Source of the DNA: Kineococcus radiotolerans SRS30216 = ATCC BAA-149
Lineage (GTDB): Bacteria > Actinomycetota > Actinomycetes > Actinomycetales > Kineococcaceae
Assembly: GCF_000017305.1 (NCBI RefSeq)
Contig: NC_009664.2
Location: 3,870,001-3,902,000 of the forward strand
DNA length: 32,000 bases
Direction of reading: 5' to 3'
The notes beneath the pieces were generated by a model, which saw nothing but the letters and a program-made list of their open reading frames with translations, searched no databases and was not told the origin of the DNA. A program made the translations under genes and the position numbers. Below, piece after piece: positions 2-31,453 of the stretch. How positions within the stretch are numbered: position 1 is the first letter of the stretch; each line of letters starts with the position of its first letter.

Positions 2-682
2 TTGCGGCGCACCCGCGCCGACCTCGCCGTGCTCGGCCGCCGGACCGGGGAGTTCCTCGCGACGAAGGTCGTCGCCGGGCTCGTCCTGCTGCTGCTGGCG
101 CCGGTCTGCTGGCTGGTGCTGCGCGCCTGGGGGGTTCCCCTGCCCGGCGGGGTTCCGGTGTCGCTGGCGCTCGTCCTGGGCGGGGCGGGTTTCCTGGTGC
201 CGGACCTGGCGCTGCGCGGTGACGCGCAACGCCGCCGGCGCGACTTCCGCCGCGTCGTCGGGGTGTTCTCCGACCTCGTCGCGATGAACCTCGCCGGCGG
301 GCGCGGGCTCCCCGAGGCGTTGCTGAGCTCGGCGTCGGTCAGCGACTACTGGGCGCTGGTGCGCATCCGGCAGGCGCTGGCCGGGGCCCGGCTCTCCGGC
401 CGCACGCCGTGGCAGGCGCTGGGTGAGCTCGGGGAGGAACTGGCCGTCGCCGAGCTTTCCGACCTCGCCGGCGCCCTGGCGCTGGCCGCCGACGACGGAG
501 CCAAGATCCGCGCCTCGCTGGCCGCCCGCGCGGCGACCGTGCGCCGGCGCGACATGGCCGACGTCGAGGGCGACGCGGGGGAGAAGTCCCAGTCCATGCT
601 CGTGGCCCAGCTGGTCCTGTGCACCGCCTTCATGGTGTTCCTGGCCTTCCCCGCCGTCCACAACCTGATGGCCCAGTCGTGA
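2..682 (+). CDS. tadC: Type II secretion system F-family / TadC-like Flp pilus assembly inner-membrane protein. It may continue upstream of the window.
   Basis: The ORF runs from the window edge and shows strong GC3 bias. It has hydrophobic N- and C-terminal TM segments (LVLLLLAPVCWLVL, LVLCTAFMVFLAFPAV). The central T2SS-F-like helical region reads FSDLVAMNLAGGRGLPEALL...LSDLAGALALAADDGAKI. It lies immediately upstream of a Flp-like prepilin, as tadC does in actinobacterial tad loci. Confidence 0.65.
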   Translation: MRRTRADLAVLGRRTGEFLATKVVAGLVLLLLAPVCWLVLRAWGVPLPGGVPVSLALVLGGAGFLVPDLALRGDAQRRRRDFRRVVGVFSDLVAMNLAGGRGLPEALLSSASVSDYWALVRIRQALAGARLSGRTPWQALGELGEELAVAELSDLAGALALAADDGAKIRASLAARAATVRRRDMADVEGDAGEKSQSMLVAQLVLCTAFMVFLAFPAVHNLMAQS

Positions 683-709
683 CCGAGAAGCAGTTCGAAG
701 GGAAAACCC

Positions 710-943
710 ATGTCCGACCACTTCCTCCTCATCTCCCGCCTCGCCCGGCTGCTCTCGGCGCGGGCGCGCCGGGCGGCGGCCTCCGGGCGCGACGCGGGAG
801 CGTCGGCGCTGGAGTGGGCGGTGATCGCCGCGATCGTCGTGGTCGCGGCGACGCTCATCGGCGGGGCGGTCTACAACATCGTCCAGAGCAAGAGCGAGGG
901 GCTGACGGAGTGCGCCGCCGTGGCGGTCGGCTCGAACTGCTGA
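710..943 (+). CDS. flp: Flp/Fap-family type IVc prepilin (77 aa)
   Basis: An ATG at 710 is preceded by GAAGGGA. The prepilin-peptidase-type motif G/ASALEW (G at 797-799) is followed by the hydrophobic stretch AVIAAIVVVAATLIGGAV. This matches the Flp G/xxxxE[YFW] pattern. The small size and the position between tadC-like and tadE-like genes also fit. Confidence 0.65.
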   Translation: MSDHFLLISRLARLLSARARRAAASGRDAGASALEWAVIAAIVVVAATLIGGAVYNIVQSKSEGLTECAAVAVGSNC

Positions 944-1347
944 GGGGACCCCGGGACGACCGGGGGTCCGCCGCGCTGGAGATGGCGTTCATCGCCCCGG
1001 TGTTCCTGCTGCTGGTGTTCTTCGGCATCCAGGCGGGGTTGTGGGCCTACGGCCGCTCCGTCGCGCTGGCCGCGGCCCGCGAGGGCGTCGCGCAGCTGCG
1101 CGTCGTCCCCGACGAGCAGTCCGCGGCCGCCGCGGAGCCCGTCGTCCGCGCCCACGTCGAGCAGTTCGCGGGCGCGATCGGCCGCGAGTCGCTGCTCGGG
1201 CCGCGGGCGAGCACGCGCTGGAGCGCGGATCGGGGCGAGGTCTCCGTCGAGGTCACCGGCCGCGTCGTCAGCCTCGTCCCGGGCCTGGACCTCACGACGA
1301 CGCAGCGGGCCTCGGGGACCGTGGAGCGCTTCGGGGACGTGCGGTGA
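910..1347 (+). CDS. TadE-like pseudopilin / Flp pilus assembly protein. The start is uncertain: GTG 910 or ATG 982.
   Basis: The TadE N-terminal signature DDRGSAALEMAFIAPVFLLLVFFGIQAG is present. GTG 910 has GAGGGG 8 nt upstream, whereas ATG 982 lacks a well spaced RBS. The stop overlaps the next start (GTGA at 1344-1347). Confidence 0.7.
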   Translation: MRRRGGRLELLRGPRDDRGSAALEMAFIAPVFLLLVFFGIQAGLWAYGRSVALAAAREGVAQLRVVPDEQSAAAAEPVVRAHVEQFAGAIGRESLLGPRASTRWSADRGEVSVEVTGRVVSLVPGLDLTTTQRASGTVERFGDVR

Positions 1348-1766
1348 ACCGCCCCGACGACCGGCCGGTCCCCGACGCGGGCAGCGTGGCGCTGGAGTTC
1401 ACCCTGGTGGCCCCCGCCCTGCTGCTGCTCGTCGCGCTGCTGCTGGCCTACGCCCGCGTCACCCAGGTGTCGGCGACGCTGGACTCCGGGGTCCGCGACG
1501 CGGCCCGCGCGGCCACCACGGCGCGCAACCCCCTCGCCGCGCAGGAACGGGCCCGCGTCGTGGTCCGCGACGCCGTGGGCGCGGGGAACTGCGCCGACAG
1601 CCTCGTCGTCGAACCGATCCCGGAGTTCGCCGCGGGCCGCGCGGTGACGGTCACCGCCACCTGCACGTACTCGGTGGGCGACCTCGGCCTGCCGGGTCTG
1701 CCCGGTTCGCTGTCGGTGACCAGCTCCTTCGCCAGCCCGCTGGACCCGAACCGGGAACTGTCGTGA
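1344..1766 (+). CDS. TadE-like pseudopilin / Flp pilus assembly protein
   Basis: The GTG start overlaps the upstream stop. The N-terminus PDAGSVALEFTLVAPALLLLVALLLAY matches the TadE signature (G-S-x-A-x-E-F followed by a hydrophobic helix). GC3 bias is strong. Confidence 0.75.
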   Translation: MNRPDDRPVPDAGSVALEFTLVAPALLLLVALLLAYARVTQVSATLDSGVRDAARAATTARNPLAAQERARVVVRDAVGAGNCADSLVVEPIPEFAAGRAVTVTATCTYSVGDLGLPGLPGSLSVTSSFASPLDPNRELS

Positions 1767-2254
1767 GCGCCCTGCGCGGCGGGGGCGACGAGGGTTCCAT
1801 CGCCCCCGCGGTGCCGGTCCTCGCCCTGGTCCTCCTGCTGCTGGCCGGGCTCGTCGTCGACGCCTCCCGCCAGCTGAGCGGCCGGGCCCGCGCCGTGGCC
1901 TACGCCGAGGAGGCCGCCCGGGCCGGGGCGGCGGCGATCGACCTCGACGCCGCGGACCTGGAACTGCTGCCCGACAGCCAGGTCGCGGCGCGGGTGAACG
2001 CGTACTGCCGGGCGGCCGCGGCGTCGGGCGCCCCGATCGTCGACCCGGGGAACTGCTTCCGGGGGACCACCGACGTCGGCGACCCGCTGCACCGCAGGAT
2101 CGTCGTCCAGACCCGCGTCGAGATCGCGCAGCGGGCCAGCCTGCTGGGGATCGTCGGCGTGCAGGAACTGCGGGCCGCCGGCGACGGCCGGGCCCGACCC
2201 TTCGAAGGAACGAGCGAGGAGGACGTGACGTGTCGAGAAACCGGGTCCTGCTGA
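1763..2254 (+). CDS. TadG-like / Tad-associated pilus assembly protein (TadE/G-like N-terminal domain)
   Basis: The GTG start overlaps the upstream stop (GTGA at 1763-1766). The N-terminal segment GSIAPAVPVLALVLLLLAGLVVDASRQLSGRARAVAYAEEAARAGAAAI resembles the hydrophobic helix plus xxD...AAxAGA motif of TadG-type proteins. Confidence 0.55.
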   Translation: MSALRGGGDEGSIAPAVPVLALVLLLLAGLVVDASRQLSGRARAVAYAEEAARAGAAAIDLDAADLELLPDSQVAARVNAYCRAAAASGAPIVDPGNCFRGTTDVGDPLHRRIVVQTRVEIAQRASLLGIVGVQELRAAGDGRARPFEGTSEEDVTCRETGSC

Positions 2255-2808
2255 CCGCCGCGGCGTGCGCGGTGGCGGCGCTGACGGGCGCCTGCTCCGG
2301 CGCCGCCACCGACACCACGACGGCCGTCGAACCACCGGCCGCCAGCGCGACCAGCGCCGCGGTCCCCCCGACGGGGGTTCCCGCCGGGTTCGAGGGGGAC
2401 GCCGCGGTCACCGCGGTGCACGCCTACCTGCGCGAGCAGGCGCTGGCCGTCAACGCCGGGGTCGCCGACCCCGCCCGGCTGCCCGGGTTCACCGCCACGC
2501 TGACCCCCGCGGGTCAGGAGTGGGCGGTGCCGCTGCTGGCGGCGAACCTGGGCGACTGGATGCCCGGGCCCTACCCCGTGGGGGTCCTGGCCAGCACCCG
2601 CGTCGGCGACGACCGCGTCGAACTCGCCCTCTGCCTGCAGGACCGCGGGTGGCAGGTCGAGCGCTCCACCGGGCGCGCCCTCAACGCCCCCCACCACGCC
2701 ACGGCCCGGGCCGTCGTCCTGCGGGTGGGGGAGCGGTGGCTCGTCGACGACGTCGCCGCCGACGGCGGCGAGTGCACCGCGGCCGACGTCGTCGAGGAGC
2801 GGTTCTGA
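2230..2808 (+). CDS. Hypothetical lipoprotein (192 aa)
   Basis: GTG 2230 has a strong RBS, GAGGAGGA (2216-2223), 6 nt upstream. The signal peptide with a lipobox-like LTGAC reads MSRNRVLLTAAACAVAALTGAC/SG. A Thr/Ala/Pro linker precedes a globular domain. I recognise no family. Confidence 0.6.
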   Translation: MSRNRVLLTAAACAVAALTGACSGAATDTTTAVEPPAASATSAAVPPTGVPAGFEGDAAVTAVHAYLREQALAVNAGVADPARLPGFTATLTPAGQEWAVPLLAANLGDWMPGPYPVGVLASTRVGDDRVELALCLQDRGWQVERSTGRALNAPHHATARAVVLRVGERWLVDDVAADGGECTAADVVEERF

Positions 2809-3983
2809 TGCGCCGCTGCGCCGCGGCCCTGGTGGTCGTGCTCGGTCTCGTCGCGGTGGCGGCTCCCGCGCGGGCGGCGGAGGCGGGTGGGGCCCGGCTG
2901 CTCGCGGCCCCCTCGGCCGGGACCGGTTCCGGTTCCGTGCACGGTTCCTGCCGCACCTGGTCGAGCTCGGCCGGCGAGTACGGGGCGGTGTGCTCCGGGG
3001 GTGGGCGCGCCAAGGACTACCGCGCGCTGCTGGACGGCGCGGCGCCCCCGACCTGCTGGCTGGTGCCCCCGGGGAGCACCGACTTCACGCCGAAGGGGGT
3101 GGCACCCCCCGCGGAGGCCTCCACCCTCTCGGTGGCCGTCCCCGCGCCCACCCTGACCGCGCGGCCCGCACCGGGTCCCACCGCGACGCCGACCACCACA
3201 CCCACCGGAACACCCACCGCGACGCCCCCGTCCGTCCCGACGTCGGCGCCGGCGATCCCGTCGGCGCCGGTGCCGGCACCGGGAACCCCCTCGAGCACCA
3301 CCACCGAGGTCCCCGCGCCCACCCCGACCGAGACCGTCCCCGTCGAACGGCCCCAGGACTTCCTCCAGGTCTGCGTGACCTCCGCTCCCGACCCGGGCAC
3401 CCTGGCCCCGGCCCGCCCCACCACGTTCGAGGCCGTGCTGGTCCCGGTGCTGCTCAGCGACCCCGGCCGCCTCCGGTTCTGGTGGGAACTCACCGAGGGG
3501 CAGCGGCAGTACCTCACGTTCGTGGACGACCGCAGCCGCGTCGACGAGGGCAGGATCGTGACCTCGCCCTCCCGCACCCCCCGCATCGGGCAGGTCGTCG
3601 CGTTCTCCGCCACCGGGACCTCGCACCGGCCCCTGGCGATCGGGCGGCTGCGGATGGACGCGGAGCTCGTCTCCCTGCGGGTCCGGACCGGTGAACCCGG
3701 ACGTCCCGACGTGACCTGCGCGGGCCCGGGCCGGGAACTCCCGGCAGGGGCCACCGAGCGCACCGGCCCGGACGTCTGCTCCTTCAGCTACCGGGAGACC
3801 TCCGCGGGCCGGGGCACCGCCGCACCCGACACCTACGACGTCACGGCCACCGAGACGTGGCGGATCCGAGTCAGCTCCGACGCGGGTGCGACGTGGACCA
3901 CCGAACGGGTCGTCGAGATCCCCGTCCCCACCGGTCTGCGGGTCACCGAGGTGCAGACCCTCGTCGTGCCCCTCGTCCCGTGA
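2808..3983 (+). CDS. Hypothetical Sec-secreted protein with a central Pro/Thr-rich linker (391 aa)
   Basis: The ATG overlaps the upstream stop (TGATG), with GAGGAG 8 nt upstream. The Sec signal peptide is MRRCAAALVVVLGLVAVAAPARA/AE. A Cys-containing N-domain is followed by a PT-rich linker of about 70 aa (roughly 3130-3340) and a C-terminal domain of about 200 aa. I recognise no family. Confidence 0.6.
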   Translation: MRRCAAALVVVLGLVAVAAPARAAEAGGARLLAAPSAGTGSGSVHGSCRTWSSSAGEYGAVCSGGGRAKDYRALLDGAAPPTCWLVPPGSTDFTPKGVAPPAEASTLSVAVPAPTLTARPAPGPTATPTTTPTGTPTATPPSVPTSAPAIPSAPVPAPGTPSSTTTEVPAPTPTETVPVERPQDFLQVCVTSAPDPGTLAPARPTTFEAVLVPVLLSDPGRLRFWWELTEGQRQYLTFVDDRSRVDEGRIVTSPSRTPRIGQVVAFSATGTSHRPLAIGRLRMDAELVSLRVRTGEPGRPDVTCAGPGRELPAGATERTGPDVCSFSYRETSAGRGTAAPDTYDVTATETWRIRVSSDAGATWTTERVVEIPVPTGLRVTEVQTLVVPLVP

Positions 3984-4026
3984 CCCACCCCGAACCGACC
4001 GCCCCACCCGAGCAGAGGCGAAACCC

Positions 4027-5913
4027 GTGAGCACCGCCACCTCCACCCGTCCGCCGTCGCGGACCCCGCACCGGCTGCCCCGCGTCGCGCCGTCCCGCCG
4101 CGAACGCGCCGGGGAGGTGCTGCGCGGGCTGGCCGCCGCCCTCGTGCTGCTGGCCGTGCTGGCCGGGGTGCCCCTCGCGCTGGTGGAACTGGTCGGGAAC
4201 CCGCTGCCCGACACCCCTCCCGCCCGGGCCTGGCTGGACGCCGAGCTCAGCGCGTCCGCCGTCCTCGACGTGCTGGCCGTGGTGCTGTGGCTGGTGTGGG
4301 CGCACTTCGTCGTCTGCGTCCTCGCCGAGACCCGGGCCTGGATCGCCGGCGGCGGGGCCCGCGCCGTCCCGGGGGGCGGGGCGAACCAGCTGCTCGCCCA
4401 GCGCCTGGTCGCGGCCGTGCTCCTGCTCGCCTCCGGCGCGGTCTGGGTCCCCGGCACGGTCCCGCTCCTCGACGCGGTCGCGGTGAGCGCGCCGGCCCCG
4501 GCCCCGTCCGCCGGGGCCGAGGCCGGGGCCGCCCGCGCGAGCGCCGTCCCGGCCCCCGCGGGCTCCACGGCTCCCGATCCCGGCTGGGCCGCGGCGCGCA
4601 GCGGTGAACCCGTCGTCCACGTCGTCCAGCCCCCGCAGGGCCGGCACCACGACTGCCTCTGGGACATCGCGGAACGGACCCTGGGCGACCCGCTGCGCTA
4701 CCACGAGATATTCGAGCTCAACAAGGACCGGGTGCAGCCCGACGGGTCGCGCCTCGTCGACGCCGACCTCATCCGCCCCGGCTGGACGTTGCTGCTCCCC
4801 GCCGACGCGCAGGGCGCCGCCCTGACCGCCCCCGTGGCCGCGCCCCCGAGCGCACCCGCCGCGGAACCCGCCGGGGTCTCCTGGGCCCCCACCGCCGCCC
4901 CCGCGACGCCGGAGGGGGCCGGGCCCGCCGCCCCGGGCCCCGCGGACGACCTCACCTCCCGCGCCGCCCTCTCCGGGGGACTGCTGCTGGCGGGGGTCCT
5001 CGTCGCGCTGCGCCGACGGGGCGGGCCGACGGCCGACGGCCTCGCCGACTCCCTGGCTGCGACGGCCGACCCGGAACGGGCCCGGTTCCTCGACCACGCC
5101 CTGCGCCGGCTCGCGGCCGACCGCGCCGCCGCCGGTCTGGCCCTGCCCGACGTGGTGGCCGCCCACCTCTCCGCCGACGAGCTCGTCCTGCACCTCGGGA
5201 CGCGGGCGCAGGGGGCCGCGGCCCGGCCGCCGCGGCCGTGGACGGTGCTCGAGGGCGGGGCGTGGCGGGTGGCGCGCGCCGACCTGCCCGACCTGGCGGT
5301 GCCCGGGCGACCGGCGCCCACCGTGCCCGCGCCCTTCCCCGCCCTCGTCGACGTCGCCCGCTCCGGCGACCACGAGGTCCTGCTGGACCTCGAGAGCGCC
5401 CCGGGGATCGTCGCCCTCGGCGGGGACCCCGGCACCGCCCGCGACGTGGTGGCCTCGATGGCCGTGGAACTCGCCACGAACTCCTGGTCCGACGGCGTCG
5501 AGGTCGACCTCGTCGGTTTCGGCGACGACCTCTCCGCCCTGGCCCCGGAGAACCTCCGCCCGCACGCGCTGCTGGACGAGGTGCTGGACCGCCTCGAACG
5601 CACGGGCCGGGCGGGGACCGGGACCGACCTGCTCGCCGGCCGGCTGGAGCGGGCCGGGGACCGGCCGCGGCCCCGGGTCGTCGTCGTGTCCGGGCCCCCG
5701 ACGGACACCCAGGTGGGGCGCCTGCGGAACCTGGTCGCCGGGGGCCCCACGCCCCTGGCCGTGGTGTGCGTGGGCGACGTCCCCGCCGCCAGCTGGCGCT
5801 TCGCGGTGACGTCCGACGGCCGCCTGGACCTCGGGGTCCTCGGCCTCGGCGGCCGGGCCCGCCGGTTGCCCCCCACCGAGTACGCCGCCTGGGCGGACGC
5901 CCTGCGGCCCTGA
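4027..5913 (+). CDS. Polytopic membrane protein with an extracytoplasmic LysM peptidoglycan-binding domain and a cytoplasmic degenerate FtsK/SpoIIIE-like domain
   Basis: The GTG at 4027 opens a basic N-terminus followed by three TM helices. The LysM motif spans 4618-4800 (HVVQP...DCLWDIAERTLGDPLRYHEIFELN...LIRPGWTLLLP). It is followed by a Pro/Ala linker, a fourth TM (LSGGLLLAGVLVAL RRR), and a tail of about 300 aa. The longer ORF from 3886 overlaps the upstream gene and is less likely. Confidence 0.7.
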   Translation: MSTATSTRPPSRTPHRLPRVAPSRRERAGEVLRGLAAALVLLAVLAGVPLALVELVGNPLPDTPPARAWLDAELSASAVLDVLAVVLWLVWAHFVVCVLAETRAWIAGGGARAVPGGGANQLLAQRLVAAVLLLASGAVWVPGTVPLLDAVAVSAPAPAPSAGAEAGAARASAVPAPAGSTAPDPGWAAARSGEPVVHVVQPPQGRHHDCLWDIAERTLGDPLRYHEIFELNKDRVQPDGSRLVDADLIRPGWTLLLPADAQGAALTAPVAAPPSAPAAEPAGVSWAPTAAPATPEGAGPAAPGPADDLTSRAALSGGLLLAGVLVALRRRGGPTADGLADSLAATADPERARFLDHALRRLAADRAAAGLALPDVVAAHLSADELVLHLGTRAQGAAARPPRPWTVLEGGAWRVARADLPDLAVPGRPAPTVPAPFPALVDVARSGDHEVLLDLESAPGIVALGGDPGTARDVVASMAVELATNSWSDGVEVDLVGFGDDLSALAPENLRPHALLDEVLDRLERTGRAGTGTDLLAGRLERAGDRPRPRVVVVSGPPTDTQVGRLRNLVAGGPTPLAVVCVGDVPAASWRFAVTSDGRLDLGVLGLGGRARRLPPTEYAAWADALRP

Positions 5914-6032
5914 GACGACCCCCGTTCGGGGGTGTGGAAACCCGGCCGGGCCCGGCCCGCGGGTGCTGCACTGGAACTCCCCACCGACCGCGGTGGGGTG
6001 CACGGAACACCGACACGGAGAACGGAAGAACC

Positions 6033-6329
6033 ATGGCGAACCTGAACGTCACCTTCGACGACATGCGCACCGCGGCCACCAACCTCGACCACGGCAAGGC
6101 GGAGATCGCCGACCAGCTCGCGCGGCTGAAGGCCCTCGTCGACGGCCTCGTCTCCAGCGGCTACGTCACCGACCGCTCCTCGGTCGCGTTCAAGGACTCC
6201 TACGACGAGTTCAACACCGGCATCACCCAGGTCCTCGAGGGCCTGACCGGGATGTCCGGCTACCTGAACTCCGCGGCGCAGACGCTGTCCGACGCCGACT
6301 CCCAGCTCGCCGCGAGCCTGGGCCGCTGA
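6033..6329 (+). CDS. WXG100-family (EsxA-like) small helical-hairpin protein, with a degenerate W-x-G turn
   Basis: The product is 98 aa. It shows a two-helix heptad pattern. The central turn ...VSSGYVTDRSSVAFKDSYDEF aligns with the WxG-xAF region of EsxA proteins. The C-terminus YLNSAAQTLSDADSQLAASL resembles the firmicute EsxA tail (LNSTADAVQEQDQQLS). It sits directly upstream of an EssC/EccC-like ATPase. Confidence 0.65.
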   Translation: MANLNVTFDDMRTAATNLDHGKAEIADQLARLKALVDGLVSSGYVTDRSSVAFKDSYDEFNTGITQVLEGLTGMSGYLNSAAQTLSDADSQLAASLGR

Positions 6330-6339
6330 CCCCACCCCG

Positions 6340-6368
6340 CGCCGGGCACCCGCCGCGGGTGCCCGGCG
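6340..6368 (+). terminator. Perfect 12-bp GC-rich hairpin between the WXG100-like gene and the ATPase gene; a possible attenuator or partial terminator
   Basis: CGCCGGGCACCC (6340-6351), loop GCCGC, GGGTGCCCGGCG (6357-6368). The arms are perfectly complementary. There is no U-tract, which is common in high-GC actinobacteria. Confidence 0.45.
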
Positions 6369-6414
6369 GGTTCCCCCGTCACGCTGGAGGACCCGTCGAT
6401 CCGAGGAGCAACCC

Positions 6415-9400
6415 GTGCGTCTGGCCGTGACGGTCGTCGACCCCCGCGCGGGGAGCCGGCGCGACCTCGTCGTCGAGGCGGACCCGCGGACCCCGTTCGG
6501 CGACCTCGCCCCCGTGCTGGGCACGAGCGGCGCCCGGGTGTTCCACGACGGCGCGGAACTCGCCCCGGACGTCCTGCTCGGCGACAGCGGCGTGCGCGAG
6601 GGAGCCGTCCTCAGCCTGCACGACGCCTCCGGCTGCGTCCCCGCCGAACCGGGCGGGTCCGTCGAGCTGCGCGTCGTCGGCGGCACCGGAGCCGGGGCCG
6701 TGCACCGGCTCGGGGTCGGGGAGCACCTCGTCGGCCCCGCCGGGACCGTCCCCGTCCACGGCCCCGCGACCGTCCGCGTCGCCGTCGCCCCCACCGGCGC
6801 CGTGCTCGTCTCCGCGGCCGGGGGAGAGCCCCGGCTGGAGACGGTGGAACTGCGCGCCGCGCAGCTGTGGAGCGCCGGCGACCTCGTCGACCTCGGCGCG
6901 ACCCTGCTCGGGATCGGCGTGCCCACCGCCCCCGACGCCGTGCTGGAACCCGCCGCGGCCTCCGCCGAGGAGGTCGCGGGGTTCGACTACAACCGCCCGC
7001 CCCGCCTCCTGCCCCCGGACCGGACGACGAGGTTCCGGCTGCCGCACCCGCCCGGGGACCCCGCCCGCCGGCCCTTCCCCGTCGTCGCCGCCCTCGCCCC
7101 GCTGGCCATGAGCGCGACGATGGTCGCCGTCAGCCACCACTACGCCTACCTCGCCATCGGCCTGCTGACCCCGGTCGTGGTCGTGGCCAACGCGCTCGTC
7201 GACCGCAGGGCGGGCCGCACCAGCCACCGCGCCGTCCTGGCCCGCTACCGCCGCGAGAAGCTCACCACCGAGGACGACGCCGCCCGGGCCCTGGTCGCCG
7301 AGCGCCGCGCCCGCCGGGACAGCGCCCCCGACCCCGCCGAGCTGCTGCTCACCGCCATCGGCCCCCGCGCCCGGCTGTGGGAGCGCCGGCGCCGCGACGC
7401 GGACCACCTCCACGTCCGCGTCGGCCTCGCCGACCTGCCCTCCGACGTGGTCGTCGAGGACCCCGAGCAGCTCGAGCACCGCCGGCTGGTGACTGCCACC
7501 GCCTCCCGCGTCCCGGTCACGGTGCCGCTGGCCGAGCACCCCGTCACCGGGGTCGCGGGGGCCGGCGCCCGCGCGCTCGCCGCGCGCTGGCTGGTGCAGC
7601 TGGCCGTCCTGCAGAGCCCCCGCGACGTGTCGCTGCACGTCCTGACCAGCGCGGCGGGACTGGCGGAGTGGGAGTGGGTGCGGTGGGTGCCGCACGCCCG
7701 CGCCGAGGCCGGCGGGGCCGCGTCGGTGTTCGTCGGCACCACCACCGAGACCTGGGCCCGGCGCGTCGCCGAGCTCGGCGCGGCCCTGGAGGACCGGCGG
7801 CGGGCGCTGGCGGACCTGCCCGCCGGAGCCCGCCTCGACGTCCCCGACCTCGTCGTCGTCCTCGACGGGGCCCGGCGGCTGCGCTCGCTGCCCGGGGTCG
7901 TCACCCTGCTCACCGACGGGCCCGCGCTGGGGGTCCGGGTGGTCTGCTGCGAGGAGGACCGCCGATCCCTGCCCGAGGAGTGCTCCGCGGTCGTCGAGGA
8001 GCGCCCCGACGGGTCGCTGCGGGTCGAGCGCCAGCGCCACCCCGTCGTCGCCGGGGTCCTGCCCGACCTCCCCGCCCCGGGGTGGGCCGCCCGGATCGCC
8101 CGCGCGCTGGCCCCCGTGCGCGACGCCGGGAACGACGACGCCGGCGCCGGCCTGCCCGACGGTTCCCGGCTGCTGGACGTCCTGGGCCTGGAACCGCCCA
8201 CCCCGCAGGCGGTCTCGGCCCGCTGGCTGCTGTCCCCGGCGAGCACGACCGCCGTCGTCGGGGAGTCCCTGGACGGGCCCTTCGGCATCGACCTGCGCGC
8301 CGACGGCCCGCACGGCCTCGTCGCCGGCACCACCGGGTCGGGCAAGTCCGAGCTGCTGCAGACGATCGTGGCCTCCCTCGCCGTCGCCAACCGCCCCGAC
8401 GCGATGACCTTCGTGCTCGTGGACTACAAGGGCGGGGCGGCCTTCAAGGACTGCGTCGACCTGCCGCACACCGTCGGGATGGTCACCGACCTCGACACCC
8501 ACCTCGTCGCCCGGGCCCTCACGTCGCTGGGGGCCGAGCTGCACCACCGCGAGCAGCTGCTGGCCGCCGCCGGGGCCAAGGACCTCGAGGACCACGACGA
8601 CCTGCGCGAGGCCGACCCCGGGCGGGGGCTGCCGCGCATCCCGCGGCTGCTCATCGTCATCGACGAGTTCGCCTCCCTGGCCCGGGAGCTGCCCGACTTC
8701 GTCACCGGCCTGGTGAACATCGCCCAGCGCGGGCGCTCGCTCGGCATCCACCTGCTGCTGGCGACCCAGCGGCCCACCGGTGTCGTCAGCGCGGAGATCC
8801 GCGCCAACACCAACCTGCGCATCGCGCTGCGGGTCACCGACGCCGCGGAGAGCTCCGACGTCCTCGACGCCCCGGACGCGGCGCGCATCGCCAAGGCCAC
8901 CCCCGGGCGCGCCTACGTGAAGCTCGGGCACGGCTCCCTCGTCCCCTTCCAGTCCGGGCGCGTCGGGGGCCGGCGCCCGGGGGTGTCGTCCGCGCAGGAC
9001 GTCCCCGCCCCCTGGTCGGCGCCCCTGCCCCCCGCCGACCTCGGCCGCCCCGCACCGCGCCGGCCGAGGGGCCCCGCCGCCCGCGACGACGCCGCCGAGA
9101 CCGACCTGAGGCACCTGGTCGCGGCGGTCCGCGCCGCCGCGGAGGACCTGGGCGTCCCCGCCCCGCGCAGCCCGTGGCTGCCGGCGCTGCCCGCCCTGCT
9201 GAGCGCGGCGGACCTGCCCGCGCCGACCGGGACGAACGCCGCCACGTACGGCACGGTCGACGTGCCCGAGCGCCAGCGGCGCGACGGCCTGGAGTTCGAC
9301 CTCGACGTCCACGGCCACCTCTACGTCGTCGGCGCCCCCCGCAGCGGCCGCTCCCAGCTGCTGCGGACCCTGGCCGCCCGCCTCGCCGAGCGCGTGCCCA

Positions 9401-10755
9401 CCGCGGACCTGCACCTGTACGGCCTGGACTGCGGCGGCGGTGCGCTGCTCGCGCTGGCCGCGCTGCCGCACACCGGCGCCGTCGTGCAGCGCAGCGAGAC
9501 CGACCGGGCGGTGCGGCTGCTCACCCGCCTGCGCGAGGAGGTGCTGCGCCGCCAGGGCGAGCTCGGTGCCCTCGGGGTCGCCGACGTCGGGGAGCAGCGC
9601 GCGCTCGCCGCCGCCGGCGGCCCGCCGGCCTGGCCGCACCTGGTGCTGCTGCTGGACCGCTGGGAGGGCTTCCTCGGGGGCCTGGCCGAGCTCGACGGCC
9701 AGGCCCCGCTGGAGCTGGTGACGACGCTGCTGCGCGAGGGGGCCGGCGTCGGGGTGCACGTCGTGGTCGCCGGCGACCGCCAGCTGCTGACCGGCCGCAC
9801 CGGGACGCTGGTCGAGGACAAGCTGCTGCTGCGCCTGACCGACCGCGCCGACGCGGTCCTGGCCGGTCTCTCGGCCCGGCAGGTGCCGGAGGACGTGCAG
9901 CCCGGACGGCTGCTGCGGGCCGGGACCGGGGCCGAGGCGCAGGTCGCGGTCCTCGGCGACGACCCCTCCGGCCCCGCGCAGGTGGCGGCGCTGGCCGCGC
10001 TCGCGGAGCGGCTGCGCACCCGCGACGCGGGGACCCCGCGCGAGCGGCGGCCGTTCCGGCTCGACGTCCTGCCCACCTCCCTGGACTACGACCGGGCGCT
10101 GGAGCTGACCGAGCGGGGCCCGGGGCGCCTCGTGGCGCTGGTGGGGGTCGGCGGGGACGACCTGACCGGGCTCGGGCCGGACCTGCTGGCCGGGCCCGGG
10201 ACGGCGATCGTCGCCGGCCCCGCGCGCTCGGGCCGCAGCACCGTGCTGCTGACGATGGCCCGGTCCCTGCTGGACCAGGGGGCGCAGGTCGTGATCGCCG
10301 CGCCCCGGCCCTCGCCGCTGCGCGCGCTCGCGGGCCGCCCGGGGGTCCGGGCCGTGCTGACCGGGGACGACCTGACCGCGGCCGAGCTCGAACCGCTCCT
10401 CGGCGCCGCGGCCGGTCCCGCCGTCCTCCTCGTCGACGACGCGGAGGTGCTGCGCAACTGCGCCGCGGACGGCTGGCTGAGCGGGCTGGTCGCCCGCTGC
10501 GGGCGCGACGGGACCGCGGTGATCGTCGCCGGGGAGGCGTCGGAGGTGGGGTCCGGTTTCTCCAACTGGCAGGTCCCGTTGCGGCGCAACCGGTGCGGCG
10601 TCCTCATCGCGCCCGGCGACGTCATGGCCGGCGACGTCGTCGGGGCCCGGGTGCCGCGCAGCGCGCTGGGGGCGCCGGCCCAGCCGGGCCGGGTGCTGCT
10701 GCACACCGGCGACGGCGAGCTGCGCACGGTGGCCGTCCCGCAGTCGGTAGCCTGA
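6415..10755 (+). CDS. FtsK/SpoIIIE-family triple-P-loop ATPase, EssC/EccC-like (type VII secretion-type), with an N-terminal ubiquitin-like domain and an FHA-like domain
   Basis: GTG 6415 has GAGGAG 7 nt upstream. Two TM helices lie around 7075-7200. D1 has Walker A GTTGSGKS (8326-8349) and Walker B LLIVIDEF (about 8647). D2 reads GAPRSGRS (9331-9354). D3 reads GPARSGRS (10216-10239). The 1446-aa length is typical of EssC/EccC. Confidence 0.9.
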   Translation: MRLAVTVVDPRAGSRRDLVVEADPRTPFGDLAPVLGTSGARVFHDGAELAPDVLLGDSGVREGAVLSLHDASGCVPAEPGGSVELRVVGGTGAGAVHRLGVGEHLVGPAGTVPVHGPATVRVAVAPTGAVLVSAAGGEPRLETVELRAAQLWSAGDLVDLGATLLGIGVPTAPDAVLEPAAASAEEVAGFDYNRPPRLLPPDRTTRFRLPHPPGDPARRPFPVVAALAPLAMSATMVAVSHHYAYLAIGLLTPVVVVANALVDRRAGRTSHRAVLARYRREKLTTEDDAARALVAERRARRDSAPDPAELLLTAIGPRARLWERRRRDADHLHVRVGLADLPSDVVVEDPEQLEHRRLVTATASRVPVTVPLAEHPVTGVAGAGARALAARWLVQLAVLQSPRDVSLHVLTSAAGLAEWEWVRWVPHARAEAGGAASVFVGTTTETWARRVAELGAALEDRRRALADLPAGARLDVPDLVVVLDGARRLRSLPGVVTLLTDGPALGVRVVCCEEDRRSLPEECSAVVEERPDGSLRVERQRHPVVAGVLPDLPAPGWAARIARALAPVRDAGNDDAGAGLPDGSRLLDVLGLEPPTPQAVSARWLLSPASTTAVVGESLDGPFGIDLRADGPHGLVAGTTGSGKSELLQTIVASLAVANRPDAMTFVLVDYKGGAAFKDCVDLPHTVGMVTDLDTHLVARALTSLGAELHHREQLLAAAGAKDLEDHDDLREADPGRGLPRIPRLLIVIDEFASLARELPDFVTGLVNIAQRGRSLGIHLLLATQRPTGVVSAEIRANTNLRIALRVTDAAESSDVLDAPDAARIAKATPGRAYVKLGHGSLVPFQSGRVGGRRPGVSSAQDVPAPWSAPLPPADLGRPAPRRPRGPAARDDAAETDLRHLVAAVRAAAEDLGVPAPRSPWLPALPALLSAADLPAPTGTNAATYGTVDVPERQRRDGLEFDLDVHGHLYVVGAPRSGRSQLLRTLAARLAERVPTADLHLYGLDCGGGALLALAALPHTGAVVQRSETDRAVRLLTRLREEVLRRQGELGALGVADVGEQRALAAAGGPPAWPHLVLLLDRWEGFLGGLAELDGQAPLELVTTLLREGAGVGVHVVVAGDRQLLTGRTGTLVEDKLLLRLTDRADAVLAGLSARQVPEDVQPGRLLRAGTGAEAQVAVLGDDPSGPAQVAALAALAERLRTRDAGTPRERRPFRLDVLPTSLDYDRALELTERGPGRLVALVGVGGDDLTGLGPDLLAGPGTAIVAGPARSGRSTVLLTMARSLLDQGAQVVIAAPRPSPLRALAGRPGVRAVLTGDDLTAAELEPLLGAAAGPAVLLVDDAEVLRNCAADGWLSGLVARCGRDGTAVIVAGEASEVGSGFSNWQVPLRRNRCGVLIAPGDVMAGDVVGARVPRSALGAPAQPGRVLLHTGDGELRTVAVPQSVA

Positions 10756-10759
10756 CCCG

Positions 10760-11641
10760 GTGCCGGCCAGCCCCTCCCCGCGGAGCCCTCAGGCGTCCCC
10801 GGAGGCCGGGCGCAGCGGGTTCGCCGTGCGGCTGGACAACTTCGAGGGCCCCTTCGACCTGCTGCTGGGCCTCATCACCAAGCACCAGCTCGACGTCACC
10901 GAGGTCGCCCTCGCCCGGGTGACCGACGACTTCATCGCCCACCTGCGCGCCGCCTCCCGCCAGGAGGAGGACTTCGACCTCGACGAGGCCAGCGAGTTCC
11001 TGCTGGTCGCCGCGACGCTGCTGGACCTCAAGGCCGCCCGCCTGCTGCCCGCCGCCGACGTCGAGGACCCCGAGGACCTCGCGCTGCTGGAGGCCCGCGA
11101 CCTGCTCTTCGCCCGGCTGCTGCAGTACCGCGCCTACAAGCAGGTCGCCGCGCTGCTGGCCGAGCGCTTCGAGCAGGCGTCGCGGCGGGTGCCGCGGGCG
11201 GTGGCGGTGGAGCCGCACTTCGAGAAGCTGCTGCCCGAGCTCGTGCTCACCGTCTCCCGCGAGCAGTTCGCCGCGATCGCGGCCCGCGCCCTGACCCCGC
11301 GGCCGACGGCGCTGGTCGACCTGGACCACCTGCACTCCAGCGCGGTGAGCGTCCGCGAGCAGGCGAGCCTCGTGGTGGACCGGCTGCGGCGCGCGGGGAC
11401 GGCCACGTTCGCCGAGCTCGTGGCCGACGCCGGGGACGGGGAGCTCGGGACGCTGGTGGTCGTGGCCCGGTTCCTGGCCGTGCTGGAGCTGTTCCGCGAG
11501 CGCCGGGTGCGCCTGGAGCAGCCGGAGGCGCTGGGGGAGCTGACCGTGCGCTGGGACGCGCAGGTGGAGGCCGAGCGGGGCGCGGCGGCGGCCGCGGTGC
11601 CGGCCGGGCTGGACGAGTTCGAGGGAGGGACCGGCGCGTGA
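10760..11641 (+). CDS. scpA: Segregation and condensation protein A (ScpA kleisin)
   Basis: The conserved N-terminus FAVRLDNFEGPFDLLLGLITKHQLDVTEVALARVTDDFIAHL and the C-terminal winged-helix region LVVVARFLAVLELFRE are present. It is followed by scpB with a GTGA overlap. Confidence 0.9.
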   Translation: MPASPSPRSPQASPEAGRSGFAVRLDNFEGPFDLLLGLITKHQLDVTEVALARVTDDFIAHLRAASRQEEDFDLDEASEFLLVAATLLDLKAARLLPAADVEDPEDLALLEARDLLFARLLQYRAYKQVAALLAERFEQASRRVPRAVAVEPHFEKLLPELVLTVSREQFAAIAARALTPRPTALVDLDHLHSSAVSVREQASLVVDRLRRAGTATFAELVADAGDGELGTLVVVARFLAVLELFRERRVRLEQPEALGELTVRWDAQVEAERGAAAAAVPAGLDEFEGGTGA

Positions 11642-23102: not shown

Positions 23103-23933
23103 TCAGGCGCCGACGGACAGCGTCCCGCGCAGCACGCTGTCGGAGGAGTGGCCGGGGTCCCCGTCCAGCGGTTCGCGGGAGACGTCGACGACGGCGAAGC
23201 GGTCCAGGTCGAGGTCGGCGGGCAGCGTCACCGTGGTCACCGCGGTCACCGCGCCGGCGTCCGCGGTGCCCCCGTCGAGGGTCCCCAGCGACACCAGCCC
23301 GCCGTCCGCGTCGAGCAGCCACGCCTCGAGGAACCCGTCCACCGGGGCGGGCACGCCGGAGATCCGCAGCTCCAGCCGCCGGGTGCCGTCCTGCTCGGTG
23401 ACGTCGGCGGTGCCGCGGGCGGGGCCCGGGTCCTGGCCGGGCAGGGGGCCCAGCGCCGCCGAGGACACCACCACCGGCCGCGGCGCGGCGGTGGGGGTGG
23501 GCGGGTCCGCCGCCAGCCGGGTGCCGAGCACCCCCAGGCCCAGGCCGACGGCCGCGGCCGCCGCGACCGGGAGCCAGCGGCGGCGGGGCGCGGTGCGCCC
23601 GGGCTCCCGCCGCAGCGGTCGCACGACCGGGGCGACCGGCTCGGGACCGCCGGCGGGCGCGGGGGACGGCGCACGGGGGGTGAGCGGGTCGAAACCGAGC
23701 TCGCGGGCGATGCCCTCCCACGTCCCCGCGGGCACCGGCACCGGCTCCACCACGTCCTCGGAGCGGGCCGCGCCGACGACCCGCGACCAGGCGGCGACCT
23801 CGTCGCGGCACACCGCGCACCCCGCCAGGTGGGCGTCGACCTCCGCGGGGACGTCCTCGCCCAGGGCCACGAGCACGGCGGTGTCCTCGGGGAGGTGACC
23901 GCCCTCGGGGAGGGTGGACTCATCCATCGGCAC
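23103..23933 (-). CDS. rskA: Anti-sigma factor, ZAS-type N-terminus with an RskA-like extracytoplasmic domain. An alternative ATG start lies at 23927.
   Basis: GGAGGA lies 5 nt upstream of GTG 23933, and the gene overlaps the sigma gene stop. The HxxxCxxC motif is AHLAGCAVC. There is a single TM (WLPVAAAAAVGLGLGVLG). The C-terminal RskA-like region reads LEAWLLDADGGLVSLGTL...VSREPLDGDPGHSSDSVL. Confidence 0.8.
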   Translation of the reverse strand: MPMDESTLPEGGHLPEDTAVLVALGEDVPAEVDAHLAGCAVCRDEVAAWSRVVGAARSEDVVEPVPVPAGTWEGIARELGFDPLTPRAPSPAPAGGPEPVAPVVRPLRREPGRTAPRRRWLPVAAAAAVGLGLGVLGTRLAADPPTPTAAPRPVVVSSAALGPLPGQDPGPARGTADVTEQDGTRRLELRISGVPAPVDGFLEAWLLDADGGLVSLGTLDGGTADAGAVTAVTTVTLPADLDLDRFAVVDVSREPLDGDPGHSSDSVLRGTLSVGA

Positions 23934-24531
23934 GGTCGTCCTCCAGGCGCGAACGCAACCGGCGCAGGGACCGCCGGAGGTGGCTCTTCACGGTACCCAC
24001 GGGCAGACCGGTGCGTTCGGCGATCTGCGTCTGGGTCAGGTCCTCGAAGAACGCCATCCGCACGAGGGTGCGCTGGGGTTCCCCGAGCTCGTCCACCTCG
24101 GCGAGCAGGACCACGCGGTCGGTCGCGGTGTCCTGCGGCGCGGGCTCCAGCACCACGGTGGCGTCCCCGCCGTGCAGCTGCTCGGGGTCGGTGAGGACCT
24201 CGGGCCGGTAGCGGGTGGTGAGGGCGTCGGCGATGCGGTGGCGGGCGATGCCCACCAGCCACGCCGGGAGCGAGGACCGCTCGGGGTCGAAGCGCTCCCG
24301 CGAGCGCCAGGCCGAGACGAAGACCGCCTGCACCACGTCCTGGGCGTCGGTCTCCTCCAGCCGGCGCCGGGCGAGGCCGTTGACCAGCGGGGCCCAGCGG
24401 GTGAACGCCTCCCGCAGGGCGCGCTCGTCCCCGGCGGCCAGCGCCCGGCCGACCGCGGCGTCGTCCCACGACGCCGGGTCGGTCCAGGCGGCTGCCGCCC
24501 GTGACGGTGACGGGTCGGGCCGGGGGTTCAC
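23920..24531 (-). CDS. sigK: ECF (group IV sigma-70) RNA polymerase sigma factor, SigK-like. The start is uncertain: GTG at 24531, 24540 or 24585.
   Basis: Region 2 reads DAQDVVQAVFVSAWRSRERFDPERSSLPAWLVGIARHRIADAL. The region 4 HTH reads LTQTQIAERTGLPVGTVKSHLRRSLRRLR. The gene is translationally coupled to an RskA-type anti-sigma gene. Confidence 0.85.
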   Translation of the reverse strand: MNPRPDPSPSRAAAAWTDPASWDDAAVGRALAAGDERALREAFTRWAPLVNGLARRRLEETDAQDVVQAVFVSAWRSRERFDPERSSLPAWLVGIARHRIADALTTRYRPEVLTDPEQLHGGDATVVLEPAPQDTATDRVVLLAEVDELGEPQRTLVRMAFFEDLTQTQIAERTGLPVGTVKSHLRRSLRRLRSRLEDDRADG

Positions 24532-24589
24532 GGGCCCCACCGTAGGGGTCCCGACCCCCGGCGCCAGCCCGGCGGGCCCTCCCACGGGC

Positions 24590-25270
24590 TCAGGCCCGCG
24601 CCGTGACGACGACGTTGTCCTCGTACGTCCCCGTCCGGGGGTCGAAGTCGCCGCCGCAGGTGACCAGCACCAGCTGCGGCGGCCCCTGCCGGGCGAACAG
24701 CTCACCGGTGGGCAGCTCGTCCTTGGGGTAGCTGCGCCGGGCCGTCACCGCGTGCTCGGAGACGCTCCCGTCGGAGGAGGTGACCCGCACGAGCATGCCG
24801 TCCGCCACGTCCTGGAGGTCGAAGAGGGCACCGGGCCCCGCGTCGCGGGTGTCGACGTGCCCGGCGAGCACGGCGTTGCCCGCCTCGCCCGGGACCGGGC
24901 CCCACCGGTACCAGCCCACGACGCGGGGGTCGTCGGGCACGGCCAGCGCCCCCGCCCCGTCCACGCCCACCGGGACGACGGGAGCGTCCACCCCGAGGGC
25001 GGGCACCTCCAGGCGCACCGGGACCGGCTCGGGGGCCGCGGGGACGGGAGCCGCGTCCCGGCGCCCCACCGGCGCCGGGACGGCCGCGGTGACCACCGGC
25101 CCCGGCGCGAGCGCGGGGGCGGTGGGAGCGGGAGCGGCGGCGGGCGGCGCCGGCAGGGGCGTCCCGAACCCCGCCGCCGGGCGCGCGAGCCACCACCCGG
25201 CGATCAGCAGGACCCCGACGAGGGCCAGCGCGCACGCCAGGACGGCGCGGACCCCGGCCCGGGGGCGCAC
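24590..25270 (-). CDS. Class F sortase (transpeptidase). An alternative GTG start lies at 25321.
   Basis: The N-terminal TM anchor is VRAVLACALALVGVLLIAGWW. The sortase motifs are VGWYRWGPVPGEAGNAVLAGHVD (catalytic His), LVLVTCGG (catalytic Cys) and NVVVTARA (Arg). Confidence 0.8.
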   Translation of the reverse strand: MRPRAGVRAVLACALALVGVLLIAGWWLARPAAGFGTPLPAPPAAAPAPTAPALAPGPVVTAAVPAPVGRRDAAPVPAAPEPVPVRLEVPALGVDAPVVPVGVDGAGALAVPDDPRVVGWYRWGPVPGEAGNAVLAGHVDTRDAGPGALFDLQDVADGMLVRVTSSDGSVSEHAVTARRSYPKDELPTGELFARQGPPQLVLVTCGGDFDPRTGTYEDNVVVTARA

Positions 25271-25301
25271 CGGGACCGGTGCGCCCCCGTCCCGGCGCGC
25301 C

Positions 25302-31048: not shown

Positions 31049-31288
31049 GTGGGCGTGCTCGTGCAGGAACGACGGCGCCCCGGCGAGGACCGGCCGGCCG
31101 CGGGGCTGGACGGGTGGTCGCAGGACGAGGTCGAGGAGGAGTTCCGCGCCCTGGTGGCGACCCTCCTCGACACCCCGACCGACGTCGTCCGCCCCGGTCC
31201 CCACCCCCCGGTGCCACCGCGCCCGCCGGTGGCGGTGGCCGGGGCCGGGGACCGCAGACCGCCCCGCCGGGAGCGCTCGCCCCCGTGA
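31049..31288 (+). CDS. Hypothetical small protein (79 aa), with an acidic N-half and a Pro-rich C-half
   Basis: GTG 31049 lies 9 nt after the hsp20 stop, with GAGGGG upstream. GC3 is high throughout. I recognise no family. It could be a chance ORF in high-GC DNA. Confidence 0.4.
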   Translation: MGVLVQERRRPGEDRPAAGLDGWSQDEVEEEFRALVATLLDTPTDVVRPGPHPPVPPRPPVAVAGAGDRRPPRRERSPP

Positions 31289-31453
31289 CGGGACCCGCGG
31301 GGGCGTGGCGGTGAGCTCCACGGGCCCGGTCGCGCCCACCCGGACGCGACCGGGCCCACCGGGACCCGCCGCCGTCCGCGCCGACGGCCCGGCGGGGGGT
31401 CCCCGTAGGCTGCACGCTCGGGGCACGGGCGGCAGCGGGGACGGGGGACGACG

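Follow-up and report, generated by a model that had tools for sequence, protein, structure and literature searches.

A Tad pilus operon beside a separable two-gene type VII-like cassette in Kineococcus radiotolerans

Type VII secretion is defined by only two universal parts; how do its substrates get through the thick cell wall where neither the ESX core nor the Ess core is present? The question bears on a 32,000-nucleotide stretch of the Kineococcus radiotolerans SRS30216 chromosome (NC_009664.2, positions 3,870,001 to 3,902,000; this whole stretch is called the window), in which the distal end of a Tad (Flp) pilus operon is followed by a WXG100-like gene and the gene of a large EccC/EssC-family ATPase. 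Do these genes encode one machine, two machines that work together, or two systems that only share an address? We find that the Tad genes and the ATPase gene are linked far above chance, in both search directions, yet not obligatorily, and that the WXG100/ATPase pair is a separable, exchangeable and dispensable two-gene cassette. That the window encodes two cooperating machines side by side, namely the end of the Tad operon with three additional genes and the type VII-like cassette, possibly bridged by the last of these three, is a proposition for which we regard the scales as level.

Gene order and junctions

Raw open reading frame lists of the window are useless because its guanine-plus-cytosine (GC) content is about 77%; genes were called by a third-position GC (GC3) frame plot and a simple gene caller. 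One unambiguous set of ten plus-strand genes, g1 to g10, emerged, and every coordinate, overlap and gap given in a preliminary description of the window was reproduced by frame plot, caller and junction reading. The features are the following, with domain positions inside g10 given in amino acids (aa) and the basis of each assignment in brackets.

2..682, plus strand: g1, tadC-type platform protein of the T2SSF family, truncated 5' by the start of the window (PF00482, 7e-5)
710..943, plus strand: g2, Flp-type prepilin of 77 aa (weak DUF4244 match, conserved Flp motif)
910..1347, plus strand: g3, TadE-like pseudopilin (PF07811, 1.5e-11)
1344..1766, plus strand: g4, TadE-like pseudopilin (PF07811, 4.6e-10)
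1763..2254, plus strand: g5, TadG-like pseudopilin (PF13400 'Tad', 1.4e-9)
2230..2808, plus strand: g6, tad-linked lipoprotein with lipobox LTGC (sequence reading)
2808..3983, plus strand: g7, tad-linked protein that has a Sec signal, a linker rich in Pro/Thr and five invariant Cys (sequence, family alignment)
4027..5913, plus strand: g8, polytopic membrane protein with a putative LysM region and an FtsK/EccC-type P-loop fold (weak LysM match, AlphaFold2 (AF2) model, Foldseek)
5914-6032, plus strand: 119-nt gap with GC hairpins between g8 and g9 (fold prediction)
6033..6329, plus strand: g9, WXG100-fold protein of 98 aa, subfamily 'a' (PF06013, 6.6e-18; TIGR03930, 5e-11)
6341-6367, plus strand: perfect 12-bp GC stem-loop 3' of g9, without a T-tract (fold prediction)
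6415..10755, plus strand: g10, EccC/EssC-family ATPase of 1446 aa (family profiles, structure model, motifs)
g10, N-terminus: ubiquitin-like domain (Ubl), aa 1-~70; FHA domain, ~80-180; transmembrane helices, 220-264; then a stalk
g10, domain D1: Walker A at aa 638-646, GTTGSGKSE; Walker B at 745-753
g10, domain D2: P-loop at aa 973-981, GAPRSGRSQ (window 9331-9357)
g10, domain D3: P-loop at aa 1268-1276, GPARSGRST (window 10216-10242)

The junctions from g2 to g8 are tight, with a 34-nt overlap between g2 and g3 (910-943), GTGA overlaps at g3/g4 (1344-1347) and g4/g5 (1763-1766), a 25-nt overlap between g5 and g6 (2230-2254), TGATG at g6/g7 (2806-2810) and a 43-nt gap between g7 and g8 (3984-4026). 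The 119-nt gap then precedes g9, and a hairpin-containing 85-nt gap (6330-6414) separates g9 from g10. Neither gap folds significantly better than its dinucleotide shuffles (z = 0.08 and -1.32), and a scan of both for canonical promoters and terminators, which is uninformative at 77% GC, found none. The unbroken packing from Tad into type VII-like genes that had been proposed is true of g1 to g8 only: two gaps set off the WXG100/ATPase pair, which forms a separate unit in many relatives. The tad-g8 unit probably ends, and the cassette begins, at the 119-nt gap, since relatives have the cassette in inverted orientation or lack it at the g8/g9 junction.

The type VII-like module is, as described earlier, stripped down. 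Its 3' neighbour scpA starts 4 nt past the g10 stop (window 10753-10762), close enough that the ATPase gene may be co-transcribed with scpA and scpB, and housekeeping genes follow, the order being scpA, scpB, rluB, chorismate mutase, prephenate dehydrogenase, cmk, plsC and der. Among the scanned window proteins (two small or partial open reading frames at 31049-31999 lie outside the scan), none matched Pfam or NCBIfam models of EccB, EccD, EccE, mycosin, EsaA, EssA or EssB, in agreement with the earlier statement that the cores of type VII secretion systems (T7SS) a and b are missing from the window. The closest relative with the same layout (locus L004) has no ecc, ess or mycosin genes in either flank of the cluster, and XerD-like and ParA-like genes precede its tad operon; the whole cluster is therefore embedded among the housekeeping genes xerD-parA-scpA-scpB, with no ecc genes at its borders.

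Linkage, exchange and loss in relatives

The preliminary description had called for a survey of gene neighbourhoods across Actinomycetota. We collected 82 loci anchored on g8 (80 genome loci and two obtained via a protein index) from at least 10 named genera, called their genes and clustered their proteins, adding the window for clustering; 59 of the 82 are flank-complete. Gene order is near-invariant: a SAF/CpaB-like gene, tadZ, tadA, tadB, tadC, flp, tadE, tadE, a tadG-like gene, g6, g7 and g8. The g8 family was present in 80 of the 82 loci, g7 in 71, TadE/G in 70, TadC and Flp in 67 each, g6 in 62 by hidden Markov model (HMM), the EssC-like family in 41 and WXG100 in 36. Of the flank-complete loci (n = 59), 55 carry tad genes, and an EssC-like gene lies no farther than about 10 kb away in 30, against a chance expectation that we estimate at about 0.4% for one such gene in a ~5-Mb genome. 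From the reverse search, based on the family-specific N-terminus of g10, six non-duplicate loci were inspected, five of which have tad genes within 10 kb, either divergent or co-directional; in L086 and L088, the two loci that extend further than the final tad pseudopilin gene, the next gene is a g8 homologue. The remaining one, from Streptomyces (L084), encodes the ATPase and type VII cargo with no tad genes in 10 kb. The survey thus places the Tad-ATPase linkage far above chance.

The frequency of an EssC-like gene near g8 varies among genera. Among the flank-complete loci it was found in all three from Serinicoccus, in both from Ornithinimicrobium, in both from Nocardioides, in 4 of 11 from Kineococcus and in 15 of 21 from metagenome-assembled genomes (MAGs), and in none of seven Aeromicrobium and none of seven Kribbella loci, the latter including a Kribbella-like 'Streptomyces' record (L050). 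Three records, labelled Paenibacillus sp. TRM 82003 (P0015), Janthinobacterium lividum (MAG; L018) and Streptomyces sp. SID13031 (L050), have g8/tad loci that group with Kineococcus or Kribbella and are probably contaminated or mislabelled.

Genes g6, g7 and g8 recur with tad regardless of the ATPase and therefore belong to the tad operon, not to the type VII cassette. They had been thought to sit in place of a type VII core; this does not hold, as they trail tad in about 60-70 of the 82 loci with the EssC-like gene present or not.

The cassette itself varies in its placement, lying on either strand and at varying distance from g8 in relatives. It also comes in two lineages: two ATPase clades co-vary perfectly with two WXG100 subfamilies, 'a' (including g9) with a G-Y-V-T loop and 'b' with the canonical W-x-G. 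Both types occupy the slot between g8 and scpA in different Kineococcus species (window 6033-10755 versus L007, L010, L011, L012, L037 and L045), which means that either one cassette replaced the other or paralogues of long standing were lost differentially. Several other congeners that keep tad have deleted the cassette. What is left between g8 and scpA in one Kineococcus locus (L003; 11852-11932) is a stretch of 27 aa with 96% identity to g10 residues 1420-1446, and a 29-aa internal remnant of g10 persists in another (L006; 12008-12094). In two more (L054 and L063, about 10001-11000), g8 is cut at about residue 276-304 with scpA directly next, the g8 cytoplasmic domain having gone together with the cassette.

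Genes neighbouring the ATPase in relatives are typical type VII cargo: T7SS_signal (PF21725), DUF6571, an AAA_16 ATPase and additional genes of WXG100/EspC-like type. In 6 of 6 loci with the type 'b' cassette, the gene after it encodes an AAA_16 ATPase of 402 aa (for example L023:18207-19415, with homologues in Serinicoccus and Ornithinimicrobium), which recalls EccA or TsfV and may have an accessory role.

Components of the two machines

Matches to Pfam, NCBIfam and solved structures bear out the Tad and WXG100/EssC-like identities first read from the sequence. Of the ten proteins, g1, g3 to g5, g9 and g10 could be assigned by profile searches, g2 by its motif with a weak profile match, g6 and g7 gave no match and g8 gave a weak LysM match.

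The T2SSF match of g1 just misses the Pfam cut-off; g1 clusters with the TadC genes of 67 loci, whose family members match T2SSF. The prepilin g2 carries the processing motif of Flp prepilins, G|xxxxE(Y/W), as G|ASALEW, kept in 66 homologues (family form G|ASALEWA(I/L)IAAVVVVAA); a hydrophobic helix comes next, and two Cys lie near the C-terminus. With the platform protein g1 and the TadE/TadG-type pseudopilins g3 to g5, the window holds the distal part of a Tad system; TadB and TadC are present in relatives, and each of the 11 flank-complete Kineococcus relatives, like the majority of the remaining loci, has TadA/TadZ genes upstream. No prepilin peptidase (TadV/CpaA) was seen in the window or the annotated loci, where no dedicated test for it was made. 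The Tad prepilin peptidase is often encoded elsewhere in the genome.

The ATPase g10 and its neighbour g9 represent the two generic parts of type VII secretion: a membrane EccC/EssC ATPase with tandem FtsK/SpoIIIE P-loops, here two transmembrane helices and three P-loops, and an adjacent WXG100-family protein. The PF06013 match of g9 is above the cut-off and its TIGR03930 score is below (42.6 versus 44.85). In an alignment of 36 homologues, G-Y-V-T replaces W-x-G in the g9 loop and Trp is absent; judged from this alignment, the loop is a conserved subfamily trait rather than decay. Matches of g10 comprise FtsK_SpoIIIE (2.4e-55), EssC (TIGR03928, 1e-140), EccCa (3e-117) and EccCb (1e-86), with all scores below the curated equivalog cut-offs (470 versus 778 bits for the EssC model). 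Among solved structures, EccC of Thermomonospora curvata was the best match (1e-77), along with Bacillus subtilis YukB (1e-61, from g10 residue 191) and EccC5.

The Ubl-FHA-EssC architecture that had been proposed for g10 is borne out by the family profile and the AF2 model. The N-terminal 230 residues alone gave no Pfam match; a profile of ten homologues matched FHA domains (7.5e-4 to 2e-3) and, weakly, ubiquitin-like proteins, and, within this family, Pfam Yop-YscD_cpl (FHA-like) matches 6 of 10 members and YukD 3 of 10. The AF2 model of residues 1-330 (predicted local distance difference test (pLDDT) score 79) contains a beta-grasp domain similar to SUMO/ubiquitin (TM-score 0.6-0.74) and an FHA domain similar to CT664, OdhI and GarA (TM-score 0.74-0.78, root-mean-square deviation about 2.2 Å), followed by two transmembrane helices and an extended helical stalk. 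In the FHA alignment of the family, the GR and SxxH positions that canonically bind phosphothreonine are not conserved. Walker A and B of D1 are invariant in 34 full-length homologues, whereas D2 and D3 carry GRS instead of GK[ST]; by its motifs, D1 is the sole g10 domain with a canonical ATP site, and D2 and D3 are probably nucleotide-binding, non-hydrolysing domains. The D2 Walker B reads DRWE. The EssC-like genes of three long MAG or genome contigs (L083, L086 and L088) are split into 2-4 gene calls, which probably are assembly frameshifts, not true split genes.

The envelope proteins g6 and g7 have no Pfam or NCBIfam match, PDB profile matches of g6 are limited to its signal-peptide/lipobox region, and family profiles of both gave no real matches in PDB and Pfam. 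The 62 loci detected by the g6 family HMM have it in the tad operon every time, and g7 lies directly 5' of g8 in nearly all of its 71 loci. Genes of 203 and 370 aa upstream of EssC in Frankia were considered as g6 and g7 homologues and rejected by family HMM.

For g8, the earlier reading as a LysM protein with a pseudo-FtsK domain withstood modelling, structure comparison and inspection of its motifs. Three strong transmembrane helices and one weaker helix are predicted, and the LysM region (~aa 196-260), between the third and fourth, would be extracytoplasmic. It matches the NF008399 LysM model weakly (4.7e-4), Pfam LysM reaching just 0.027 in a Nocardioides homologue, and corresponds in the AF2 model built with 24 homologues to a small, confidently folded domain at residues 196-257. 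Residues ~340-628, predicted to be cytoplasmic, are modelled with pLDDT >90, and Foldseek matches them with probability 1.0 to EccC, FtsK, EssC D3, EccC D2-D3, TcpA and the EccC5 DUF. The Walker A Lys and the Walker B acidic residues are missing from this domain in 74 of 74 homologues, and it is therefore predicted to be catalytically dead. The family is large, with 487 representatives of 50%-identity clusters at E<=1e-30, and no Pfam or NCBIfam model matches its core.

Most g8 homologues are ~900 aa long and carry a TPR/BTAD-like tail that is missing in Kineococcus. Outside this genus (for example L002:11948-12787), the C-terminal extension of ~300 aa gives weak TPR/BTAD Pfam matches, and its start (LLGPVxVxAPG...) recalls SARP winged-helix domains. 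A SARP winged-helix plus BTAD module in the long homologues was unsupported: the search of solved-structure profiles gave a single TPR-like motif. In Frankia (L059:3137-14080; L068; L071), a g8-like gene of 1330-1460 aa adjoins an EssC-like gene and small genes of 80-105 aa; the 20 kb covered contain neither tad genes nor g6 or g7.

The rest of the window encodes an ABC transporter, a monooxygenase, an isochorismatase, Hsp20, an HrpA-like helicase, a sortase and a sigma/anti-sigma pair of the extracytoplasmic function (ECF) type. This pair, whose anti-sigma factor is RskA-type, stands in a row with the sortase and a DUF4397 protein at 23103-26102 on the minus strand, looking like a small cell-surface module unconnected with the Tad/type VII finding. 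The helicase, at 26333-30499, is a 1388-aa HrpA-like DEAH protein with DUF3418.

Competing explanations and known systems

How might two cooperating machines be arranged? The Tad machine would be that of the distal operon end (tadC, Flp, two TadE and one TadG-like protein), extended in this lineage by g6, g7 and g8. By analogy with EccC/EssC, g10 would form a hexameric motor and channel, through which g9 could be exported as a helical-hairpin dimer. With its putative LysM region facing the peptidoglycan and its predicted dead FtsK/EccC-type domain in the cytoplasm, g8 is the most plausible contact point between the two: the LysM part might anchor an assembly in the wall beside the pilus base, and the pseudo-ATPase domain might dock on the ATPase or on its FHA/Ubl module. 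The cassette would then stay beside tad-g8 because both systems cooperate, to some presumed benefit.

Several points weigh against this arrangement. The 82 loci are phylogenetically related and many stem from one MAG project, such that their counts overstate independence. When the g8 and EssC families are aligned with hhalign, the linker, Walker A and Walker B positions fall in register with D2, although the match is not significant (E 0.026, probability 1.9%). Moreover, g8 is kept with tad where an EssC-like gene is absent nearby, in Aeromicrobium, Kribbella and 7 of 11 flank-complete Kineococcus loci, and since it persists without that gene, its main role may be with Tad alone. Among the window genes, no cargo gene lies beside the K. 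radiotolerans ATPase, and g9 lacks the WXG100 Trp. Finally, both the contact between g8 and g10 and the export of g9 are steps that we infer.

A possible but rather doubtful alternative is that the Tad operon (including g6 to g8) and the cassette are independent of each other, brought together by shared regulation or ecology, as each serves the cell surface or contact, or by a permissive insertion site between g8 and scpA. Simple neighbours would explain the absence of the cassette near g8 in Aeromicrobium and Kribbella and its deletion from several Kineococcus species with tad intact, its varying orientation and distance, the hairpin-containing gaps between cassette and g8, the two lineages in one slot and the Streptomyces locus without tad. 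Yet, for all the rearrangement, the adjacency recurs in at least eight named genera or families, whichever way the search is run, and a purely local hot-spot cannot account for divergent layouts at other chromosomal sites. Nor does independence predict the EccC-type fold of g8, its pairing in Frankia with the ATPase where no tad genes are in view, or the same adjacency in Bacillota (PMC11217815).

Going beyond cooperation, the g8 family could couple the Tad machine and the Ubl-FHA-EssC hexamer into one envelope-spanning assembly, a further T7SS subtype of monoderm Actinomycetota. We think this unlikely; if true, envelope proteins of the Tad operon would stand in for EccB/D/E or EsaA/EssA/EssB, and the independent adjacency of type VII and Tad genes in Bacillota would be explained.

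Similarly improbable is a single hybrid machine, in which the Tad filament or pseudopilus together with g6 to g8 replaces the missing conduit, export and piliation being obligatorily coupled. The lack of other type VII core genes in the window and in the flanks of the cluster in relatives, the tight same-strand packing in K. radiotolerans and the union of a putative wall-binding domain with an EccC-like one in g8 are all consistent with it. However, tad-g6-g7-g8 persists in many genomes where the cassette is absent or deleted, which makes one obligatory machine unlikely, and Streptomyces L084 and Frankia have the ATPase with no tad genes close by; repeated one-sided loss of this kind would not be tolerated under obligatory coupling. 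The preliminary description had offered a minimal exporter with novel partners or a coupled hybrid; the linkage proved to be above chance, and an obligatory hybrid is at odds with a separable cassette.

We give very little credence to a decaying or silent cassette in K. radiotolerans that is heading for deletion as in its sister species. The missing cargo genes, the deletion scars in congeners and the WXG100 protein without Trp would fit decay, but the 1446-codon frame of g10 is intact with a GC3 of 0.97, D1 Walker A/B and hundreds of family-invariant positions are retained, identity to the L004 and L014 homologues is 75-76% over the full length, and the G-Y-V-T loop is conserved across the subfamily. 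Hardly credible at all is g10 as an FtsK/TraB-like DNA translocase for Tad-pilus-dependent DNA uptake or conjugation, a reading suggested by its FtsK/SpoIIIE superfamily membership and by the support that Tad pili lend to transformation in Micrococcus luteus, and rejected on profile scores, those for EssC (1e-140) and EccC far exceeding those for FtsK (5e-19) and TraB (1e-7); the three tandem P-loops behind two transmembrane helices, as in EccC/EssC, co-variation with a WXG100 partner and T7SS_signal cargo beside the ATPase in relatives likewise speak against it.

How, then, does a Tad operon with a cooperating type VII-like cassette compare with known systems? The tad genes resemble other Tad/Flp type IVc loci in having tadC, a Flp prepilin with the G|xxxxE(Y/W) motif and TadE/TadG-like proteins, with SAF/CpaB-like, TadZ, TadA and TadB genes upstream in relatives; they differ by the three extra conserved genes g6, g7 and g8 and by having no prepilin peptidase in view. 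The cytoplasmic P-loop fold of g8, devoid of catalytic residues, is by Foldseek like the EccC 'DUF' and the degenerate D2/D3 of EccC/EssC, but it resides on a separate LysM protein with four transmembrane helices rather than on the ATPase, and its homology to them is not significant at the sequence level.

With T7SSa (ESX) the cassette shares the phylum, the best structure match (T. curvata EccC) and the WXG100 partner. It differs in that no EccB, EccD, EccE or mycosin is encoded with the ATPase in the window or the L004 flanks and in that the ATPase is one polypeptide with Ubl and FHA, scoring below the EccCa/EccCb cut-offs. The actinobacterial YukD domain was described as always fused to a 12-transmembrane-helix protein, EccD in ESX (Iyer et al. 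2006, PMC1779556), so that an ATPase with its own Ubl departs from that architecture. T7SSb is similar in its membrane ATPase with N-terminal FHA lacking phosphothreonine-binding residues, its ubiquitin-like component and its WXG100 substrate; here, however, there is one FHA rather than two N-terminal ones, the Ubl is fused instead of being a free EsaB/YukD, and EsaA, EssA and EssB are missing.

Types T7SSc-j were defined by Garrett, Higginson and Palmer 2024 (PMC11217815), with T7SSd, from Olsenella and Bifidobacterium, as the sole new actinobacterial type. T7SSd also comes from Actinomycetota, consists of few components, has an ATPase with FHA and lacks a Ubl gene of its own; it differs by the Ser/Thr kinase TsdD, TsdH, the 1654-aa Ig-like TsdI and an FHA that keeps the phosphothreonine-binding consensus (PMC11217815), while our window has no kinase, TsdH or Ig-like giant protein and its FHA lacks the consensus. 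The supplementary files of that study that were searched list no Kineococcus, Nocardioides, Serinicoccus, Frankia or Kribbella entries, and 'LysM' is absent from its main text. The literature searched contained no description of the actinobacterial cluster, the g8 family, g6/g7 or an EssC-type ATPase with fused Ubl and FHA.

The closest parallels are T7SSg and T7SSh of Bacillota (Acetivibrio, Paenibacillus), which are always adjacent to Tad genes for reasons left open by the authors, the few genera making coincidence and meaning undecidable there (PMC11217815). The preliminary description knew of no system of such composition, a view that these two types call for amending: they too place a small type VII set (WXG100, a Ubl element and an EssC-type ATPase) beside a full Tad set. 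By the published descriptions, Tad adjacency alone is shared as a defining trait, since TsgC/TshC are without FHA, the Ubl protein is separate and TsgL (a beta-propeller) or TshG/TshM are present (PMC11217815), whereas here, in Actinomycetota, the ATPase itself carries Ubl and FHA, and the tad genes come with a protein that combines a putative LysM region and a pseudo-ATPase domain. The cluster is an actinobacterial counterpart of the type VII-Tad adjacency that extends over many genera, provides natural controls through cassette gain or replacement and loss inside one genus, and offers in g8 a concrete candidate linker from a large family whose core has no Pfam or NCBIfam model. The question that T7SSg and T7SSh raised thereby becomes testable, with Kineococcus species differing in cassette presence or type as ready comparison strains.

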